A stretch of DNA of 64,000 nucleotides, from positions 25,207 through 89,206 of the IMG/VR virus record IMGVR_UViG_3300028832_002790. One strand, given 5' to 3'. Made by a program: the position numbers and the translations under genes. The stretch comes from a virus. Taxonomy: Duplodnaviria; Caudoviricetes. Position 1 is the first letter of the stretch, and every line of letters begins with the position of its first letter. This document shows positions 1-33,449 of this stretch, piece by piece. Under the pieces are notes generated by a model. The model had not been told where the DNA came from. It searched no databases and worked only from the letters and a program-made list of their open reading frames with translations.

Positions 1-2814
1 TCCGTTTCCTCTCTTCAGGCTTTCTGTTATGTCCCTGATGTTTATGTCATCCCAGTTCTCGCCGAATTCATCGGTGGCCTTGACGTCCAATATCTTGAGC
101 TTTATAGATGGATCGACATCGTTCGACGTCTTGTCTATGTATAGATACCAGACGCTTTTGGCTCCTTCCCCAAGCGTCATTTTTAGACTGTCGGCCACTT
201 GTTGGCCGACCATGCTAACGAGTTTGGTATATTCATCCCCCGTCAGCTTTCCATATAGCTCGCACTCATACGATATCTCGTCGGCTATCGTATATTCCGT
301 GCGCTCCTCTCCGTATTCCAGCTCTATTGTGGTCGAAATCGGCTTTGCGCTGCTGTAGTTTTTCGTGTTTATGTCGGCGAAGATTCCGGTTGTTCCGTAG
401 CTAAACATATAGCCGTTTATTGATAATCTAGGTGCCTGCCCCTCTGGTGCTATGACGTGGCTAAAGAAATCGTCCAGTTTTGCTTTATTACCGGCCGTTT
501 CATATGCCGTTTTTCCTACCATTGTTTCGAACAGCTGCTCGGCGTATATGCAGTTAAATGCCCCCTCTGTGGTGTTCGATCCCTCTATTATGATTTCGTC
601 TAGGTGCCCGCCGTCGGTATTCATGACCCACAGACACTTGAAACCCGTTCTTTCGTCGGTTGCTGGTACTATGTCATACCCGCCAGTAGAAGGATTAGAA
701 TATACGCCCGATACTTCTGACGTATTCAGCGTTTTTATGTCGATTCTTCCTATTTTGATATGTTCGTATATGTCTTGATTGTTTATGACGCTATGCCAAA
801 ACACCTGATACGACGTTTGGTTGTCGCTGGTTAAAACTTCCGACTCCCTGAATTCGGATATCTTTAATTCCTTGATTTCGTTCAGGTTCCTGACCCGATG
901 CTTTATCCGACCGTCCGGGGCGGTCCCGCCAGAATTCTTGATGCAATATTGAACATAACCTTCGTTTGTTATATTACCCGGTGTAAAGCTTTTCAGCACC
1001 GGTGTATTCCCTTCGTTGTCTATGACGGATAATATGTATTCCGGTGGCGTTTGCTCCGATTGCGTTGGCAACTGCAAACCATACAGTTCTCCGCTATTGA
1101 ACAATTTCGTGGTTACGGACGAATCGGAATCGGATATCAAGTCGATGTTGTCCATAAACGAAAGTATATTGCCGTTTATTTGAAAATTGTTTGATTTTTC
1201 TATGAGGGGCCACTCCGGCACCGACAGCGCCGATACCGAATTGACACGAACTTTATAATCCTGCTGGCTTTCCTCCCCCTCGTTTACGGTAACATAATCC
1301 CTGTTTTCAAAAATGTTGTAATTGGAAAACGACAAATCTCCTCCTATTTCGATCAATTCTGCCGGTGTAGCCGATTGCGGCGTGGCGTCGGCGGCAAACG
1401 ATATCTTTGCGTTTGGAGGTATCACGCATTTTCCTATATATGTTACTCTATCGGAATATCCTAGTTCCGCGTCATTGTTCCCGGAAGGATAATATTCGTA
1501 ATTGAATCGATTGCTGGGTATGAAGCTGTTCAGTTCTTGTGTTTGCGTTATGGCAAAATTTCCGCCTACGCTTTCCCTTGCGCTGAGTCCGGCTTTTTCC
1601 TTTATGTAATATGAACTGTCTTCATAATCATAAAACGTAGAAAGCCCGGCCGGTCGATCCTTGTATGTGGATGTCATTCCATTCATCATGAAAAGACATT
1701 TTTTAACAGATATCGCTCCAAAAGTTGCTGCTGGGATGCCGGTCGCCGGAACAACATAATCACTGGCGTTACACAACCCACCACTTAAAATTTTTATACA
1801 CTCTGTGGTATCGACGGTTTTTGTGGTTAGCATTTTAACCAGCGGCTTTAAAGCGTTCACGCTGTTCATTCCTGCTACCGTGAAATATCTATCGTTGTCG
1901 GCTGTATAATTTAGACGATATTCACACGACGATGGATCTTTTGAATAATTCCAATAAGAACATATCACTTGCCAACCGCGTTTTCCGTCTGCGTTATGAT
2001 ATTGATACGCCAATCTACAATGATCATTTCTAAACGTATCATACAGACAAAAAGATAGCTCACAGCCGGACAAGTCAAAATAACAATTTGTCGTAGCATC
2101 TCCGTTGCCCGTTTTTATTTTCCATATCGGCGGGGACATATCCGAACCTTGTATTGTGGTTTTATTTGCATAGATAAATGCATTATCCAACGCTCTGGCG
2201 CTTACAGCTGCCGACCAGTTTGTCATAGTCGGCGTATAATACGCGCTGGCTAGATAGTGCGGCTCGTCGGCAAACGAACCGCTGCGAATAAGACCAGATA
2301 CGGCAGAAAGATAACCGTTTGTCGACGGCGAAAGATCGCAATACAGAGAAGTATAAACAGACCTGTTTCTATATCCATACTGCCCAACACATGTATTTGG
2401 CATCGGAATAGTACCACTAAGATCGGCGCTTGTATAATAATATATCTCGCCGCTTAGCATCCGGGTGTCGGTCGAATCGCCGCCGCAAAAATTGTACCAG
2501 CACGGGTCCAGCCCCCAAGCATATGTCGTAAACGCCGTAGAAATGATCGTCCATTTACTGGAATCGAACGTTCCTGTGGTCGCCTCTATACATTTATAGT
2601 ATGTCGTTTCACCAGAAACAGTACGCTTGCAACAATCCCCGATGCTATATTGCCGGGAAGTGCTATAATTTGGAATGCTATCCCAATCCTGTACTTCCGT
2701 CGTTATCGGAAGCTTTGGATAAAACCCCAACAACTGCCTATGGTATTTCTCAAAATGTATACTTATGTTAGGTAGCCCCGTATCCGCGCTTACTGGTTTT
2801 ATTTTTTCGGCCAT
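1..2814 (-). CDS. Large virion/tail-associated protein, truncated at the left window edge (at least 938 codons)
   Basis: Manual translation from the ATG at 2814 (MAEKIKPVSADTGLPN...) is stop-free to position 1. It is absent from the ORF track only because no stop lies in the window. It follows the 2819 stop and sits in the structural block. Confidence 0.8.
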   Translation of the reverse strand, partial: MAEKIKPVSADTGLPNISIHFEKYHRQLLGFYPKLPITTEVQDWDSIPNYSTSRQYSIGDCCKRTVSGETTYYKCIEATTGTFDSSKWTIISTAFTTYAWGLDPCWYNFCGGDSTDTRMLSGEIYYYTSADLSGTIPMPNTCVGQYGYRNRSVYTSLYCDLSPSTNGYLSAVSGLIRSGSFADEPHYLASAYYTPTMTNWSAAVSARALDNAFIYANKTTIQGSDMSPPIWKIKTGNGDATTNCYFDLSGCELSFCLYDTFRNDHCRLAYQYHNADGKRGWQVICSYWNYSKDPSSCEYRLNYTADNDRYFTVAGMNSVNALKPLVKMLTTKTVDTTECIKILSGGLCNASDYVVPATGIPAATFGAISVKKCLFMMNGMTSTYKDRPAGLSTFYDYEDSSYYIKEKAGLSARESVGGNFAITQTQELNSFIPSNRFNYEYYPSGNNDAELGYSDRVTYIGKCVIPPNAKISFAADATPQSATPAELIEIGGDLSFSNYNIFENRDYVTVNEGEESQQDYKVRVNSVSALSVPEWPLIEKSNNFQINGNILSFMDNIDLISDSDSSVTTKLFNSGELYGLQLPTQSEQTPPEYILSVIDNEGNTPVLKSFTPGNITNEGYVQYCIKNSGGTAPDGRIKHRVRNLNEIKELKISEFRESEVLTSDNQTSYQVFWHSVINNQDIYEHIKIGRIDIKTLNTSEVSGVYSNPSTGGYDIVPATDERTGFKCLWVMNTDGGHLDEIIIEGSNTTEGAFNCIYAEQLFETMVGKTAYETAGNKAKLDDFFSHVIAPEGQAPRLSINGYMFSYGTTGIFADINTKNYSSAKPISTTIELEYGEERTEYTIADEISYECELYGKLTGDEYTKLVSMVGQQVADSLKMTLGEGAKSVWYLYIDKTSNDVDPSIKLKILDVKATDEFGENWDDINIRDITESLKRGNG

Positions 2815-2818
2815 ATCG

Positions 2819-5299
2819 TTAATCCCATTCTATTCTTATCAGCGAAGAATACGCCGGAGTCAGCTTCTTCAATGCCCTGTTTATCATCTTCTCCAACACG
2901 CTCTTCAGCTTCTCGTCTATCTGTCCGTTTGAATTCTTGTACCCGTTGATGTGCAGGACATACTGCGCCGACTTCGATCCGGGCATCTTGAACTTGTAGA
3001 ATCGTTCTATGTCCTCCACCAAATTCCTGACATCCGTCCTGTAATGCCAGCTTAGGTCGTCGCAGGCGAACTTGGACATATAGATGTAGTATAAATCCTC
3101 CTGCGTAATCGCCCTATCGTAAATCCTGAAATCGTCTATGCTGCCGGAGAACGACTTGTTGCACACGTTTATCTCCTGCATCAGAGAAAACAGCTTTCCG
3201 CATCTTCCGCCTATGATTATGGGGGAATCGTAATAATACTTCGTGGATTGCAGATTGGCACCACCGATATTGGAAATGAATCCGTCGATCTCCTTCTTTC
3301 CTGCCTCGATACAATCGAAATAGAACGAAATCTCGTACTTGTTTCCGCCTATTCTCTTGACAATCGCCGCCATTTGATGCCAATCGAAATTGGAAACCTC
3401 CGACAGCGGCTTCGTAATCACGTTGTGTCCGTCCTTTCCGAACAAATCGAAATACACGCAATTCGTGGAATCCTTGTTCATCCGGTAATAATCGTACATC
3501 GTCAACTTGCGCTTGTTCTTCGGGTGGACATAGAATCTGGAGGTGTCGTACTCGTCCACATACTCTCCGTTCGTACCATATACGTAGATGCACTGCTTGT
3601 CTTCGCTGAGGATCAAAAGATGATCGACATTCTTGTCCAATATGTTCCTGTTCACAATGTCTATCATCGTCGGGTTGATCCCGGCCTTGATCTTGAATTC
3701 GAATGTCTTTCTGTAATGGTGGGAGACGACCTTCCACACCTCCACCAAATCCTTCTTCAGCACATACGCAACGTTGTTGTAGTCGACGGCTATGGATATC
3801 GTATCGCTGGATTCGCTGTATCTATAATACTTCAGATTCTTGTCCGTTTCCTCGTCGCCGAAATTAAATCCGTCGTTCGTGTCGTCGCCGTTCTCGGCCA
3901 CCCAGACGCTTCTTCTGTCATAGACAAAGTGCTGCTTTTCTATCTTGACTATCGGAACGATCGTCTCCTCGGAAATACCGCATGTGACATATGTCATATC
4001 GTAGCGATTTATCTTATAGCACTTCCATGCTCCTGCGGTTCCATTCGTTCTTCCGTAAGCATACAGATAATAGCCGTTTTCGTCGTTTCCGAGATCAAGA
4101 TACTGCAAATTTGCCGATATCTCGATCTCTCCCAGCAAGTTTCCGTTGTAATCTACCTTGTAAATCTTGGCTTTGGTGCCATCACAATCCAAAATATAGC
4201 TATACAGATCTATGTCTACGAGCATATCCAACAGATGGGTATTGTCTCTAGCCTTCCAAAACGCCTTTGTCGATACCAATTGACCCATATTGTTGTACAG
4301 GCCCATCGTTCCATCCTGAAGGGGGTTGTTCTCGTCGTTGCCGAAAGTGAAAATAAAACTGTTCTTCGACCTATTGGTGATTCCGAACTTCCATCCGCCA
4401 ACATAAAGATTGTCCACTATGCTGTACGATGTGCAATTCTCCCAGTCGTTGCATTTGACCCAGAAGCATATAGAATACTCGTCTTGGGTCATTTTGCGCT
4501 TTTCGTTGTCGAACGGCACCACGATCAGCTGGTTCTTTCCGTTGAACGTCACGGCGTAATCGTCGTCGTCGAAATCGTTGCTGACACGATAATTGTAAAA
4601 CGAAGTTTCGGACGGATTGAGATAATTAATCTGCCCGTTGTCGTTGTCGTTCTTCCAATCGGTAAGATGCAGCTTTAGGCAGTCTCCCACGGATATGGAG
4701 CTGGCGATATCCTGTATGGTCTTTTCGCCGACTCTCCAATACTTGTAGTATGCGCCATAATCGAACGACATCTCGGACTCGACATCGTATACTCCGTATT
4801 CCTTGTTCTCCTCTCCCTCGGCGGCCGCTTCGTCGGCCTTCTTCGGGTCAAACCACCTATCCATCCACTTCGGCTCTATCTCCGGGTTTAAAACATCGCC
4901 GGACAGCCATGTACAAAGCCAAGTGCCGTTGGAAAGCCGCTCGTCCTGAGCCCTTCCGTATGGGGACGAATCTTCGTAATTATACCTTAATTTGTAAATT
5001 CTGTCCGCCTTGTACGGGCAAGAACCATAGGTAGCGCCGTCGCTGATGATCGTCGTGTTCTTTATGTCCAAATATTTGTTGGACGCGCTTCCGACATCCT
5101 TCATCGGGAAGTGAAAATAGGTAAAAGCGTCTTTTGTAAGGACAATATCCTCCAAATCCGAGGTATATCCCAGCTTGATGGAATCCCCAATCGGGTCTTC
5201 CACCTTGCTGTTTACGTACAAATTCGTGTAATCACGAAGATTTACGCTCTTTTTTCCTGTCCAGCTGGTATCATACGGGTTTGAATCATGAGAACTCAT
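2819..5299 (-). CDS. Virion structural/baseplate protein with a split LamG (ConA-like) domain and a probable beta-propeller insert, 826 aa
   Basis: LamG-type motifs (YSICFWVK, WHQMAA, FSGSIDDFRIYDRAIT); late-type TAAATA upstream at 5320-5325. Confidence 0.7.
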   Translation of the reverse strand: MSSHDSNPYDTSWTGKKSVNLRDYTNLYVNSKVEDPIGDSIKLGYTSDLEDIVLTKDAFTYFHFPMKDVGSASNKYLDIKNTTIISDGATYGSCPYKADRIYKLRYNYEDSSPYGRAQDERLSNGTWLCTWLSGDVLNPEIEPKWMDRWFDPKKADEAAAEGEENKEYGVYDVESEMSFDYGAYYKYWRVGEKTIQDIASSISVGDCLKLHLTDWKNDNDNGQINYLNPSETSFYNYRVSNDFDDDDYAVTFNGKNQLIVVPFDNEKRKMTQDEYSICFWVKCNDWENCTSYSIVDNLYVGGWKFGITNRSKNSFIFTFGNDENNPLQDGTMGLYNNMGQLVSTKAFWKARDNTHLLDMLVDIDLYSYILDCDGTKAKIYKVDYNGNLLGEIEISANLQYLDLGNDENGYYLYAYGRTNGTAGAWKCYKINRYDMTYVTCGISEETIVPIVKIEKQHFVYDRRSVWVAENGDDTNDGFNFGDEETDKNLKYYRYSESSDTISIAVDYNNVAYVLKKDLVEVWKVVSHHYRKTFEFKIKAGINPTMIDIVNRNILDKNVDHLLILSEDKQCIYVYGTNGEYVDEYDTSRFYVHPKNKRKLTMYDYYRMNKDSTNCVYFDLFGKDGHNVITKPLSEVSNFDWHQMAAIVKRIGGNKYEISFYFDCIEAGKKEIDGFISNIGGANLQSTKYYYDSPIIIGGRCGKLFSLMQEINVCNKSFSGSIDDFRIYDRAITQEDLYYIYMSKFACDDLSWHYRTDVRNLVEDIERFYKFKMPGSKSAQYVLHINGYKNSNGQIDEKLKSVLEKMINRALKKLTPAYSSLIRIEWD

Positions 5300-25000: not shown

Positions 25001-25278
25001 GCATTTCCGCCGAATATGGGCCCGGCGAAGTTCGCCCACGGAAGAAGTTCCTTGAGATCGTCGAATATCTCCATCAGCTGCGGACTGATTTCCTTGTCGA
25101 CAGCGTTGAAGAGAAATTCCCACTTGTCCTTTCCTTCCGGGTTCCCATCGTCGATCCACTTATTGAGCTTGTCTATGTTCGGAGAATGCTCCGGTACGAA
25201 CACCTTCACTCTTCCCCAGAAATTGGGATCGTTGTTCTGTACAACGATTCCAAGGTGAAATCCACTATAATCCATCAT
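22006..25278 (-). CDS. 5: Baseplate central spike/hub (gp5/VgrG-like), 1090 aa
   Basis: N-terminal OB-fold GIVVQNNDPNFWGRVKVFVP, GIFSIPNVGAKVYVF, V/I-x-G beta-helix repeats, and an HxH motif (SHNH). Confidence 0.8.
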   Translation of the reverse strand: MMDYSGFHLGIVVQNNDPNFWGRVKVFVPEHSPNIDKLNKWIDDGNPEGKDKWEFLFNAVDKEISPQLMEIFDDLKELLPWANFAGPIFGGNADGRFRRVLEKTARNDTATFGEAEAQNAYRPLNAYVEDRVNDKFIQTDPGSKLTNPNASDYEPCNYSGMVRGIFSIPNVGAKVYVFYQNNDPMFPVYFAASYNSDSIKQLYTGLNEVNKIGEIVKTYDYPGKFENDNVDDDNSKVFTSKTVINSNKHTIEFIDTDNRESLKLQHYAGGFKEFNNATNIEFAPKNDQKLVKGDEFETVGGSKGLYIGADSNIRVDGNSSEQIGRFYDLHKELENLRKPLKDLGQTLQLFPVKRTLYDMTPKDCSTKQKMVPIGNGFIICPTCGGVAYDPYHINGLNIPGTFNEDADKQVNELANPATDKKAEFTAKADDDDAEYHEQLDTDDDSVSRVEYGWSRIPKATSHCVSLFEDVEAYFKSNHKDHASCGKLGFFGGIMCPTCNNVFWRENTSTSMWTEKPNAQITFSPSTENGTWQEEDKRSGSQIQSAYTDIIDKARDVFTNLGEQGEEVKKVSMSKVEVIGAMFNDLPSYRVDPIGKLRVDGLFVTQQSTVPYYLPTPHVEPVDVPQIPGGDYNLTIGNKWTVSVGSNGIIIHTTGRMELAGGITNIATQELIMSAKHDMVIDGGERLMLRARKMTINPVEHNALTVDGQLHVMRNQIIRGGLLVEGELAVQHVTAPGEIAVTQTEMYTGGENEACEVKVVIQLDLAAEGIGELGPDVTAGTEAATKKKKSKWSRWKHTVVGGVLGSFAGGTGTIGGAIAGYLIGRDKRKTSNQYSQAFSAIGGAINGLIAALQAPMDATLRMPSHNHAFLQIPASFKDCPNGVRAALLTENNNINSRTIIVAARRRHHVGAFKRDPKVDAMYEKYGAIFWPFMFETVCQNLPSLEGNLRGKGLDGHNNTGDKMFVGPVYGYSDGDTGMLVGYSIRDYFNKTLNTTDHAIAMSNKNKFGYIMCVLTFKLTGDGDDDDFSGGFKPAAGTSPTATAMGFYEDTIEGDMVGDNEYLRAGDKECQAVLLGWCGKYSQGMGCKEGDD

Positions 25279-32203: not shown

Positions 32204-33007
32204 TTACCACCAAACAGGAAAATTCTCCACGGTAAATGGAATTTTTCCATCAAGAAAACTTTGATACTTTTTATAATCGATGAAATATATCTGTAACTCT
32301 GGATTTTGTTCCATCACATGACGCATCTTGATTCTGTCTCTTTCAAAATAGAATCCTTTTACTTCAACATATCTATCCTCGTTAGGTATATAAAAATCTG
32401 GATTGTATCGATGTGTTACCCCATCCATTTTATATAAAATAGGTTTACCTCTAACCCATTTCACTCCCATCGAATTCAACTTTTCAGCTACCGCCTTCTC
32501 CCACTTTCCTTGACATTTGTATTCAACACCATCAATGTTTTTTACCAAAAATCTTTTAATTCTTTTAAAATGTGTATCATACGAATCTGATTCTAACCAT
32601 TTACTCACCGCCTCTGATATCTTTTCTCTTCTTTCGGCAGAAAAAACAAATTTTTTGATCTCGCCGGTTTTGTATCTACGCATAAATGTTTCTCTGCTTT
32701 TCGCAACGGCTTTACTTGTTTCTTTAGTTAGACCAAAATTCCATGCTCGATGTTTGTGATTCTCTTTACTGTGCTTTTGTTTTTCTCGTCTAGTTCTAAA
32801 AATTTGACCACACTGTTGACAAAGCCACCCACCTTCCTTGCTAGAATATACTCGGTTTATTTTTATTCCAATTTTTCTTTGATTCTTTCGTTTCTTGCTA
32901 GAATGTCTGCCTATATAAACCCTTCTACAATGTTCACAACAAAATCTAGTTGATATTATATCACTAGATTTCTCAAAAGATTTATTACACGTTTCACAAA
33001 TATTCAT
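32204..33007 (-). CDS. Putative free-standing homing endonuclease: Zn fingers, NUMOD3-like helix and PD-(D/E)XK nuclease, 267 aa
   Basis: CETC..CEHC and CQQC..H..H fingers; SAERREKIS; YNPDFY...YVEVKG; visibly AT-rich versus flanks. Confidence 0.75.
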   Translation of the reverse strand: MNICETCNKSFEKSSDIISTRFCCEHCRRVYIGRHSSKKRKNQRKIGIKINRVYSSKEGGWLCQQCGQIFRTRREKQKHSKENHKHRAWNFGLTKETSKAVAKSRETFMRRYKTGEIKKFVFSAERREKISEAVSKWLESDSYDTHFKRIKRFLVKNIDGVEYKCQGKWEKAVAEKLNSMGVKWVRGKPILYKMDGVTHRYNPDFYIPNEDRYVEVKGFYFERDRIKMRHVMEQNPELQIYFIDYKKYQSFLDGKIPFTVENFPVWW

Positions 33008-33050: not shown

Positions 33051-33084
33051 AAATAAAAACGCGAGATCCGATCTCGCGTTAAAA
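33051..33084 (-). terminator. Intrinsic terminator after the tRNA-like gene
   Basis: Perfect 10-bp stem AACGCGAGAT/ATCTCGCGTT, then TTTATTTT on the minus strand. Confidence 0.85.
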
Positions 33085-33164
33085 TGGTCCGGGTGGAGGG
33101 ATTTGAACCCCCATGTGACCAGTTAGCCTTTCTAGACCTTATAAGAGTCAGGGCATACACCCGG
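33085..33164 (-). tRNA. Permuted ('rewired') tRNA-like RNA with UAU anticodon (Ile/AUA candidate)
   Basis: Perfect 7-bp acceptor CCGGGTG/CACCCGG, A73-CCA, T-arm with TTCAAAT, anticodon loop CT-TAT-AA; the D-loop-like AACTGGTCA lies 3' of the anticodon arm. Confidence 0.7.
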
Positions 33165-33373
33165 AATTTAGCTGACTCTGATGAACTTCCGAACGATTTC
33201 TCGTGATCTTACGGTTAGGGAAGCCGATCTTAAATGGTGGATTATCGGGCTTTTACCGCAGTCTGTGATTTATTTGGTTGGCCGTTCCTAGGTTGGCTTA
33301 ACCACTTCAATCACACTCGCACCGATCCTTGTGTACTGCTTTCTCTCATTACCGTCGTAACAAGATTAAAATC
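33165..33373 (-). ncRNA. Unassigned ~200-nt structured RNA between tRNA-Ala and the permuted tRNA
   Basis: No ORF; several nested helices and a GAAA-capped hairpin found by eye. Confidence 0.5.
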
Positions 33374-33449
33374 TGGTGGACACGTGCGGACTCGAACCGC
33401 GATCCCCTGAGTGCAAATCAGGAATTCTAACCAATTGAACTACCGGCCC
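33374..33449 (-). tRNA. trnA: tRNA-Ala(UGC) with an irregular acceptor stem
   Basis: G3.U70, A73-CCA, loop TT-TGC-AC; mismatches at 5:68, 6:67 and 49:65. Confidence 0.75.

Follow-up and report, generated by a model that had tools for sequence, protein, structure and literature searches.

A conserved 77-nt structured element upstream of a D-arm-permuted phage tRNA-Ile gene, a candidate accessory leader of the pre-tRNA

The DNA analyzed here (the window) is a stretch of 64,000 nucleotides (nt) from a virus of the Caudoviricetes (IMG/VR record IMGVR_UViG_3300028832_002790, positions 25,207 to 89,206 of that record). The subject of this work is a 209-nt spacer on its minus strand, between a tRNA-Ala(UGC) gene and a tRNA-like gene with a rearranged D-arm. 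We find that the part of the spacer next to the tRNA-like gene is a conserved structured leader element (CE) of 77 nt, which in other phages also stands directly 5' of such a tRNA. Judging from its homologues, CE is an RNA structure under selection. We tentatively favor the reading that CE serves the pre-tRNA as an accessory leader domain, whose single-stranded tail would pair with the anticodon stem at its 5' strand and would gate the maturation or availability of the tRNA, without enabling either. The features on which the argument is built are the following.

33373-33165, minus strand: 209-nt spacer, the exact gap from tRNA-Ala(UGC) to the tRNA-like gene
33161..33237, minus strand: CE, conserved structured leader element; covariance model R1 gives 81 bits (E 1.6e-21) and one match in the window
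33219..33225, minus strand: 5' strand of stem S1, GGCUUCC, pairing with 33184-33190
33184..33190, minus strand: 3' strand of stem S1, GGAAGUU, pairing with 33219-33225
33205..33218, minus strand: asymmetric internal loop of 14 nt, CUAACCGUAAGAUC (consensus CUAACCNUNAGANC), 11/14 positions invariant in 5 distinct sequences
33193..33204, minus strand: ACGA-GAAA-UCGU hairpin; the stem is invariant and the loop is GAAA, GCAA or GUAA, always GNRA
33172..33183, minus strand: conserved tail CAUCAGAGUCAG, the last 8 nt of which (33179-33172) are the guide
33144..33151, minus strand: target CUGACUCU in the tRNA (C26, 5' strand of the anticodon stem, C32 and U33), a perfect complement of the guide
33085..33164, minus strand: D-arm-permuted tRNA-Ile(UAU) with encoded CCA; Rfam tRNA model match at 33088-33164

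Homologues were searched with a pattern consisting of the 25-nt core of the tRNA anticodon arm, which identified two jumbo-phage contigs (L002, L003) and six metagenome contigs (L005-L010). CE is located directly 5' of a D-arm-permuted tRNA-Ile(UAU) in L005, L006, L008, L009 and L021 (four distinct sequences); L021 was reached via a neighboring protein, and its CE is identical to the L006 copy. The covariance model R1, built from the five distinct CE sequences, scores 95-103 bits in these five contigs, with one match per locus and always on the tRNA strand. The same model finds no second CE in the 89-kb record from which the window was taken.

From 5' to 3', CE comprises a short stem (S0), the 7-bp stem S1, the 14-nt internal loop, a 4-bp helix capped by a GNRA tetraloop and the single-stranded tail, followed by a linker and the first nucleotide of the tRNA (+1). 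Across the homologues four of the seven pairs of S1 are changed on both sides, and the stems supported by covariation are nested, not knotted. The structure leaves 98.6% of the alignment cells paired. None of 500 shuffles reaches this percentage or the covariation score, one of 500 reaches the number of pairs changed on both sides, and slid controls of the structure drop to 29-50% paired. The G-U pairs fit the tRNA strand only, so that the structure is strand-specific. Between the window and the L005 group the identity is 66-68% for CE and 92-95% for the tRNA, and these are the only two parts that the loci share; flanking genes, terminators and the upstream neighbor differ. The linker between the CE tail and tRNA +1 measures 7-15 nt, varies freely in length and sequence, and is unalignable between the window and the L005 group. 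A TATAAT hexamer is located approximately 12 nt before CE in L006.

CE does not correspond to a described RNA family. A scan against Rfam 15 (4227 models), which the sequence-only reading of this locus had proposed as a check, returned no match over 33165-33373 at E<=10, and at the same threshold no match overlapped CE in L006, L008 or L009. The possibility of a decayed tRNA was considered and rejected: alignments of CE to a canonical tRNA-Ile(UAU), to the permuted tRNA and to tRNA-Gly were matched by shuffles in 108-500 of 500 trials, and ARAGORN, like Rfam, did not identify a tRNA in the spacer.

No other block is as strictly conserved between the two CE lineages as the tail. It is identical at 12 of 12 positions in the window, L005, L006 and L008, despite the low overall identity of CE and beside a linker that is free to vary; therefore, the tail is under constraint. 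The sequence-only reading had noted that AGAGTCAG at 33179-33172 is perfectly complementary to CTGACTCT at 33151-33144 within the tRNA, and both sequences were confirmed in place. Five of the six copies, from both lineages, retain this 8-nt complement in full (window, L005, L006/L021 and L008), but in L009 it is broken without compensation. In a set of 98 distinct permuted tRNAs for which enough flanking sequence is available, only the CE loci have a perfect complement to nucleotides 26-33 upstream, and downstream controls gave none. In nearest-neighbor ensembles of the four loci with an intact guide, the guide:target helix has a probability of 0.63-0.94.

The partner of CE belongs to a much larger group. 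With a second pattern, derived from the part after the anticodon arm, permuted tRNA genes were found in at least 116 viral contigs, which yield at least 103 distinct 80-nt sequences. The first half of these genes contains the acceptor 5' strand, U8, A9, U22-N23-C24-C25, C26 and the anticodon arm with a conserved U27-U43 mismatch. The second half runs from A44 (86/103) through GAAA, G10-G11-N12-U13, a D-loop with G18 and G19 and the T-arm to the acceptor 3' strand and A73. The 5' strand of the D-stem and the D-loop are thus placed after the anticodon arm, to which they are joined by the invariant GAAA. Pair 12:23 is of the Watson-Crick type in all 103 listed sequences, with four pair types, and covariation is seen in each of the acceptor, anticodon and T stems. 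As anticodons, UAU (81), GAU (22) and CAU (1) occur among the listed sequences. The Rfam tRNA model scores the copy in the window at 29 bits, exactly its gathering score, in an alignment with the D-arm deleted, an 18-nt insertion after the anticodon arm and anticodon UAU.

Permuted tRNAs of this kind are present in 80 GenBank phage records, 77 of which are Streptomyces phages (e.g., Jay2Jay, NC_029098 75243-75306). In the 30 of these 80 records whose annotation was inspected, none is annotated except the two of EGole, which are named tRNA-Leu. Our literature search retrieved no description of such tRNAs, and according to one paper (PMC10085705) natural RNAs had offered no known non-circular permutation until its own ribozyme examples. 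On the basis of these alignments, the rewired tRNA of the window belongs to a class of tRNA-Ile with a non-circular permutation, which is widespread and, in the GenBank records examined, mostly lacks annotation. In the largest clade of the class (acceptor CCGCGAG or CCGCAAG; e.g., L047, L063, L066, L073, L082, L106), many copies start a few bases past the stop codon of a gene whose C-terminus resembles an HNH-type zinc motif (apparent end ...RCANCHR.KTHE...); other copies of this clade follow a different open reading frame (ORF), and the Jay2Jay copy follows a nucleotidyltransferase gene. Most members of the class do not encode CCA. At the CE loci, the window, L005, L008 and L009 encode it; the permuted tRNA of L006/L021 does not, nor does the tRNA upstream of CE in L006 (1983-2053, minus strand). 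A segment of approximately 60 nt comes after the permuted tRNA in the jumbo-phage contigs (L002 4215-4290; L003 ~1880-1945, minus strand); it has tRNA-like ends (UAGUG...CACUA, with CACCA inside) and is not called by ARAGORN.

Within this class CE is exceptional. In L005 two paralogous tRNA arrays (208-498 and 3182-3541) are present, and in one of them a canonical tRNA-Ile(UAU) takes the place of CE and the permuted tRNA. Array A contains tRNA-Leu(CAA), tRNA-Gly(UCC), the canonical tRNA-Ile(UAU) and a terminator, and array B begins likewise with tRNA-Leu(CAA) and tRNA-Gly(UCC), continues with CE and the permuted tRNA-Ile(UAU), and closes with a terminator nearly identical to that of array A. 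The canonical tRNA has the D-loop UAAGCUGGUCGCAU, which is similar to the one found in displaced position in the permuted tRNA. When the neighboring 129-aa protein was used as an anchor, 15 more contigs were retrieved, with CE only in L021; the DNA polymerase as an anchor led to one distant locus, in which model R1 finds no CE. The tRNA core pattern had no match in prokaryote genomes. Patterns derived from CE had none in viral contigs or prokaryote genomes, and in a blastn search against GenBank phages only the tRNA part was matched. As identical tRNA cores occur without CE in other phages, CE is to be regarded as an accessory and not as a requirement. On this sampling it is a rare, dispensable accessory in one small clade of permuted tRNAs, and was found nowhere apart from them.

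How could such an element act on its tRNA? We infer that CE would be transcribed together with tRNA-Ala and the permuted tRNA up to a terminator at 33080-33058. The CE hairpin (S0, S1, internal loop and GNRA helix) would leave the tail single-stranded, 7-15 nt before tRNA +1. The tail would be synthesized ahead of the 3' strand of the anticodon stem, and in the nascent precursor its 8 nt could pair with C26-U33. The resulting 8-bp helix is predicted to be stabler than the weak anticodon stem (three Watson-Crick pairs, one G-U pair and the conserved U27-U43 mismatch) and would block formation of the anticodon arm. Cleavage by RNase P at +1 would then release the leader and allow the anticodon arm to close. 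In this model, AGAGUCAG would be the stretch through which pairing with the tRNA acts, and CE would gate or delay the steps by which the tRNA matures, is modified or becomes available. The arrangement expected of a cis-acting pre-tRNA leader is observed, with CE on the tRNA strand in 6/6 copies, a linker of only 7-15 nt and a terminator only after the tRNA. Ordinary processing by RNase P is implied by the fact that the same tRNA abuts other tRNAs in other phages, and a U is found at position -1 in nine of the first ten loci examined (window, L002-L010).

Several observations weigh against this model. The sample is small: five distinct sequences in six copies from two lineages. In L009 the tail reads CAUCAGUUUCAG and the guide AGUUUCAG; the two substitutions leave 4+2 pairs and are not compensated in the tRNA, which is itself intact and has a compensated change in its acceptor stem, and the remainder of CE is intact as well. 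The target is invariant in all CE-linked tRNAs because every one of them was found via an exact match to it, and with an invariant target the covariation of guide and target is not scorable in this sample. Shuffling alone also produces a perfect 8-nt complement to the tRNA, in 305 of 2000 trials with the whole spacer and in 100 of 2000 with its 3' 73 nt (33165-33237). Shuffled leaders disturb the predicted fold of the tRNA about as often as the native ones (7-58 of 100), and therefore thermodynamic modeling does not discriminate either way. Finally, the 25-nt anticodon-arm core is found unchanged but without CE in L002, L003, L007 and L010, where the tRNA is located 1-3 nt after another tRNA or behind its own apparent promoter. 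CE is also absent from at least 115 further permuted tRNA-Ile loci, and from the entire length of five whole phage records with a permuted tRNA, three of which are estimated to be 100% complete. The sequence-only reading had suggested an RNA that switches, chaperones or catalyzes maturation of the tRNA; as a general need this does not hold, given that the same tRNA type occurs without CE in so many loci.

Should the pairing prove real, it would mean that phages are able to regulate a tRNA through the folding of its precursor. To our knowledge, structured and conserved 5' leaders complementary to their own tRNA have not been described in bacteria or phages. A rare and dispensable element is of limited general importance. 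With the widespread class of permuted tRNAs, CE has a well-defined partner, and the leader hypothesis can be put directly to the test in vitro.

Nearly as likely as the leader reading is that CE is an independent small stable RNA encoded in a tRNA operon. RNase P, in cutting the downstream tRNA, would generate its 3' end, and its 5' end would result from 3' processing of the RNA upstream; it would act elsewhere, on a protein or an RNA, through the internal loop and the GNRA hairpin. The 8-nt match would then be incidental, or used in trans. The conserved structure and loops point to selection on the RNA itself, and the dispensability of CE for the tRNA, the otherwise intact CE of L009 with its broken guide and the chance frequency of the 8-nt match taken alone are all in line with this explanation. 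There are also precedents. The stable RNAs C and D of phage T4 (species 1 and 2) are small structured non-coding RNAs among tRNA genes, co-transcribed with them and freed by tRNA-processing enzymes. CE resembles them in kind, as a structured RNA inside a phage tRNA operon, and differs in its conserved tail complementary to the neighboring tRNA; this comparison is one of genomic position. We know of no such tail described for the T4 RNAs. In E. coli, 3'ETS-leuZ is a conserved by-product of pre-tRNA processing that pairs in trans with Hfq-dependent small RNAs. Both 3'ETS-leuZ and CE are spacers of tRNA operons with a base-pairing logic, proposed in the case of CE, but the only complement identified for CE is the adjacent tRNA. 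Other targets of the tail in the window do not exceed chance (6 matches with at most two mismatches, 5.2 expected). An RNA acting elsewhere also fits poorly with the lack of any CE away from a permuted tRNA in viral contigs, prokaryote genomes and GenBank phages, and with the tail being the block most strictly conserved between the lineages.

The leader reading can be taken one step further. CE might be a removable 'pro-sequence' of the permuted tRNA, with the tail timing formation of the anticodon arm, and hence modification, charging or attack by anticodon nucleases, and with the internal loop as a sensor or protein site; it would be a riboswitch-like leader of a tRNA instead of an mRNA. We put this forward as a speculation that is more probably wrong than right. 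Parts of other pre-tRNAs offer a parallel. The intron of yeast pre-tRNA-Ile(UAU) is needed for pseudouridines 34 and 36, and the intron of archaeal pre-tRNA-Trp guides 2'-O-methylation. As proposed for CE, these are removable parts of a precursor that pair with or beside the anticodon loop, and the yeast case also concerns tRNA-Ile(UAU). In contrast to CE, such introns are located in the anticodon loop and depend on eukaryotic or archaeal enzymes, whereas CE is a phage 5' leader with no modification enzyme implicated and with a pairing that is predicted. T-boxes and CE are both structured leaders in which one segment is complementary to a portion of a tRNA. However, T-boxes precede protein genes, read the anticodon through a specifier codon and pair with NCCA, while CE precedes a tRNA, would contact at most the 5' strand of the anticodon stem and has no conserved AUA in its loop. 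There was no match to the T-box model RF00230, and L009 is the only copy with the triplet AUA in its internal loop.

An improbable explanation is that CE and its 8-nt match are functionless, the hitch-hiking DNA of a mobile tRNA cassette, and that the covariation reflects a small, related sample. The five distinct sequences do come from two lineages only, CE is rare and dispensable, CE alone has a minimum free energy (MFE) z-score of +0.40, and the 8-mer occurs by chance in 5-15% of shuffles. Yet four compensatory pairs in a single 7-bp stem, and 98.6% of cells paired at 66-68% identity, are not readily explained in this way, and neither is a tetraloop that varies within GNRA only. As the adjacent linker varies in length and sequence, the invariance of the tail is not simply low divergence.

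We give very little credence to a further possibility, which the sequence-only reading had raised as the 5' body of a single RNA of ~290 nt: that the leader is retained, and that CE (or the whole 209 nt) and the tRNA form one long RNA with a tRNA-like 3' domain, like transfer-messenger RNA (tmRNA) or viral tRNA-like structures. CE and tRNA are contiguous in every CE locus, and a short helix between the 5' end of CE and the linker, which would close such an RNA, can be drawn in every copy; this helix was rejected as not significant (Fisher p = 0.066). Elsewhere the same tRNA abuts tRNAs with 1-3-nt spacers or has its own promoter, pointing to ordinary processing, as does the U at -1. No tmRNA, including the permuted forms, was identified in the window by ARAGORN, and Rfam gave no tmRNA match.

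A catalytic role for the spacer had also been suggested, and no catalytic motif was found in it. Theta ribozymes, with a hepatitis delta virus (HDV) type double pseudoknot, are located 3' of the tRNA. CE differs from them in lying 5' of the tRNA, in being a simple nested hairpin and in matching no ribozyme model, HDV-like or theta. Although CE is positioned between two processed RNAs, and although theta ribozymes, as minimal HDV-like ribozymes, are described in one report as small structured RNAs adjoining phage tRNA genes and tied to their processing (PMC10879173), it is hardly credible that CE is a self-cleaving or otherwise catalytic RNA generating the tRNA 5' end or the upstream RNA 3' end, since four CE copies match no ribozyme family at E<=10, the 7-15-nt variation of the linker makes a fixed cleavage geometry at +1 unlikely, and inspection by eye revealed no HDV-like P1 (either at +1 or from the upstream CCA, there being no complement to the first 7 nt after it). 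Inspected in the same way, CE shows no hammerhead core (CUGANGA/GAAA), twister G-rich loops, hairpin-ribozyme loops A and B, kink-turn or C/D boxes.

The 5' remainder of the spacer is of a different nature. Its features are as follows.

33238..33373, minus strand: orphan 5' part of 136 nt; a hairpin and an irregular rod of ~90 nt in the fold, no relative found
33344..33365, minus strand: 9-bp hairpin with a GACG loop, present in the MFE and centroid folds, no comparative support

No relative of the orphan part was found by blastn in GenBank phages, in the rest of the genome or in 1.15 Mb of phage tRNA-array loci; a pattern derived from it had 0 matches in viral contigs, and it gave no Rfam or tRNA match at E<=10. 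At its end a CCA (33237-33235) directly follows, creating CCACCA at 33240-33235. At the other CE loci its place is taken by tRNA-Gly(UCC) or, in L006, by a CCA-less tRNA and 27 nt. The comparison thus resolves the 209-nt spacer into two unrelated pieces, the 77-nt conserved element and a 136-nt orphan, and the latter would be a lineage-specific insert.

This division also bears on the sequence-only reading, which had described one structured RNA of ~200 nt. A structured, non-coding element on the tRNA strand and linked to the permuted tRNA does exist, but the conserved part is the 3' 77 nt only. The spacer contains no minus-strand ORF of 30 aa or more, as had been noted, and all the listed motifs were found where that reading had placed them on the minus strand, including GCAGT (33339-33335) and ACTGC (33262-33258), AAGCCCGAT (33252-33244) and ATCGGCTT (33228-33221). 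The long irregular hairpin is seen in the MFE fold, and so is the ACGA-GAAA-TCGT hairpin, which the homologues support. For the bulged helix AAG(C)CCGAU/AUCGGCUU the sequences are present, but its 5' strand has no counterpart in any homologue. Stem S1 (33225-33219 with 33190-33184), which had not been listed, overlaps this helix, and the two are mutually exclusive. Folding energies do not set the whole spacer apart (z = -1.31; 18/200 shuffles fold as well); the 5' 136 nt alone are somewhat more stable than their shuffles (z = -2.15, matched by 5/200), the value for the conserved part being that given above. On the single sequence alone, the features of the spacer are not above chance.

The surroundings of the spacer on the minus strand are listed below, in the order of transcription.

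33706-33458, minus strand: 82-aa ORF, the first in minus-strand order, before tRNA-Ala
33374..33449, minus strand: tRNA-Ala(UGC), upstream neighbor on the same putative transcript (ARAGORN; Rfam tRNA 47.8 bits)
33058..33080, minus strand: strong intrinsic terminator, a 10-bp stem followed by a T-run, closing the transcription unit directly after the permuted tRNA
33007-32204, minus strand: endonuclease-I-like gene of 267 aa, which may have its own promoter

A candidate internal promoter just 5' of CE (ATCACA-17-GATAAT) was discarded: only 9/12 positions match, and promoter-like sites are no more frequent in the region than in shuffles. The 89-kb source record has an estimated completeness of 41%, and its replication module has a T4-like appearance, with a family-B DNA polymerase and a DnaB-type helicase. 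The gene at 32204-33007 (minus strand), directly after the tRNA terminator, is AT-rich, with ~31-36% GC compared to ~46-50% in the nearby flanks. In its 267-aa product, a phage endonuclease I domain is combined with possible zinc-finger motifs at the N-terminus, and the gene may encode a free-standing homing endonuclease.

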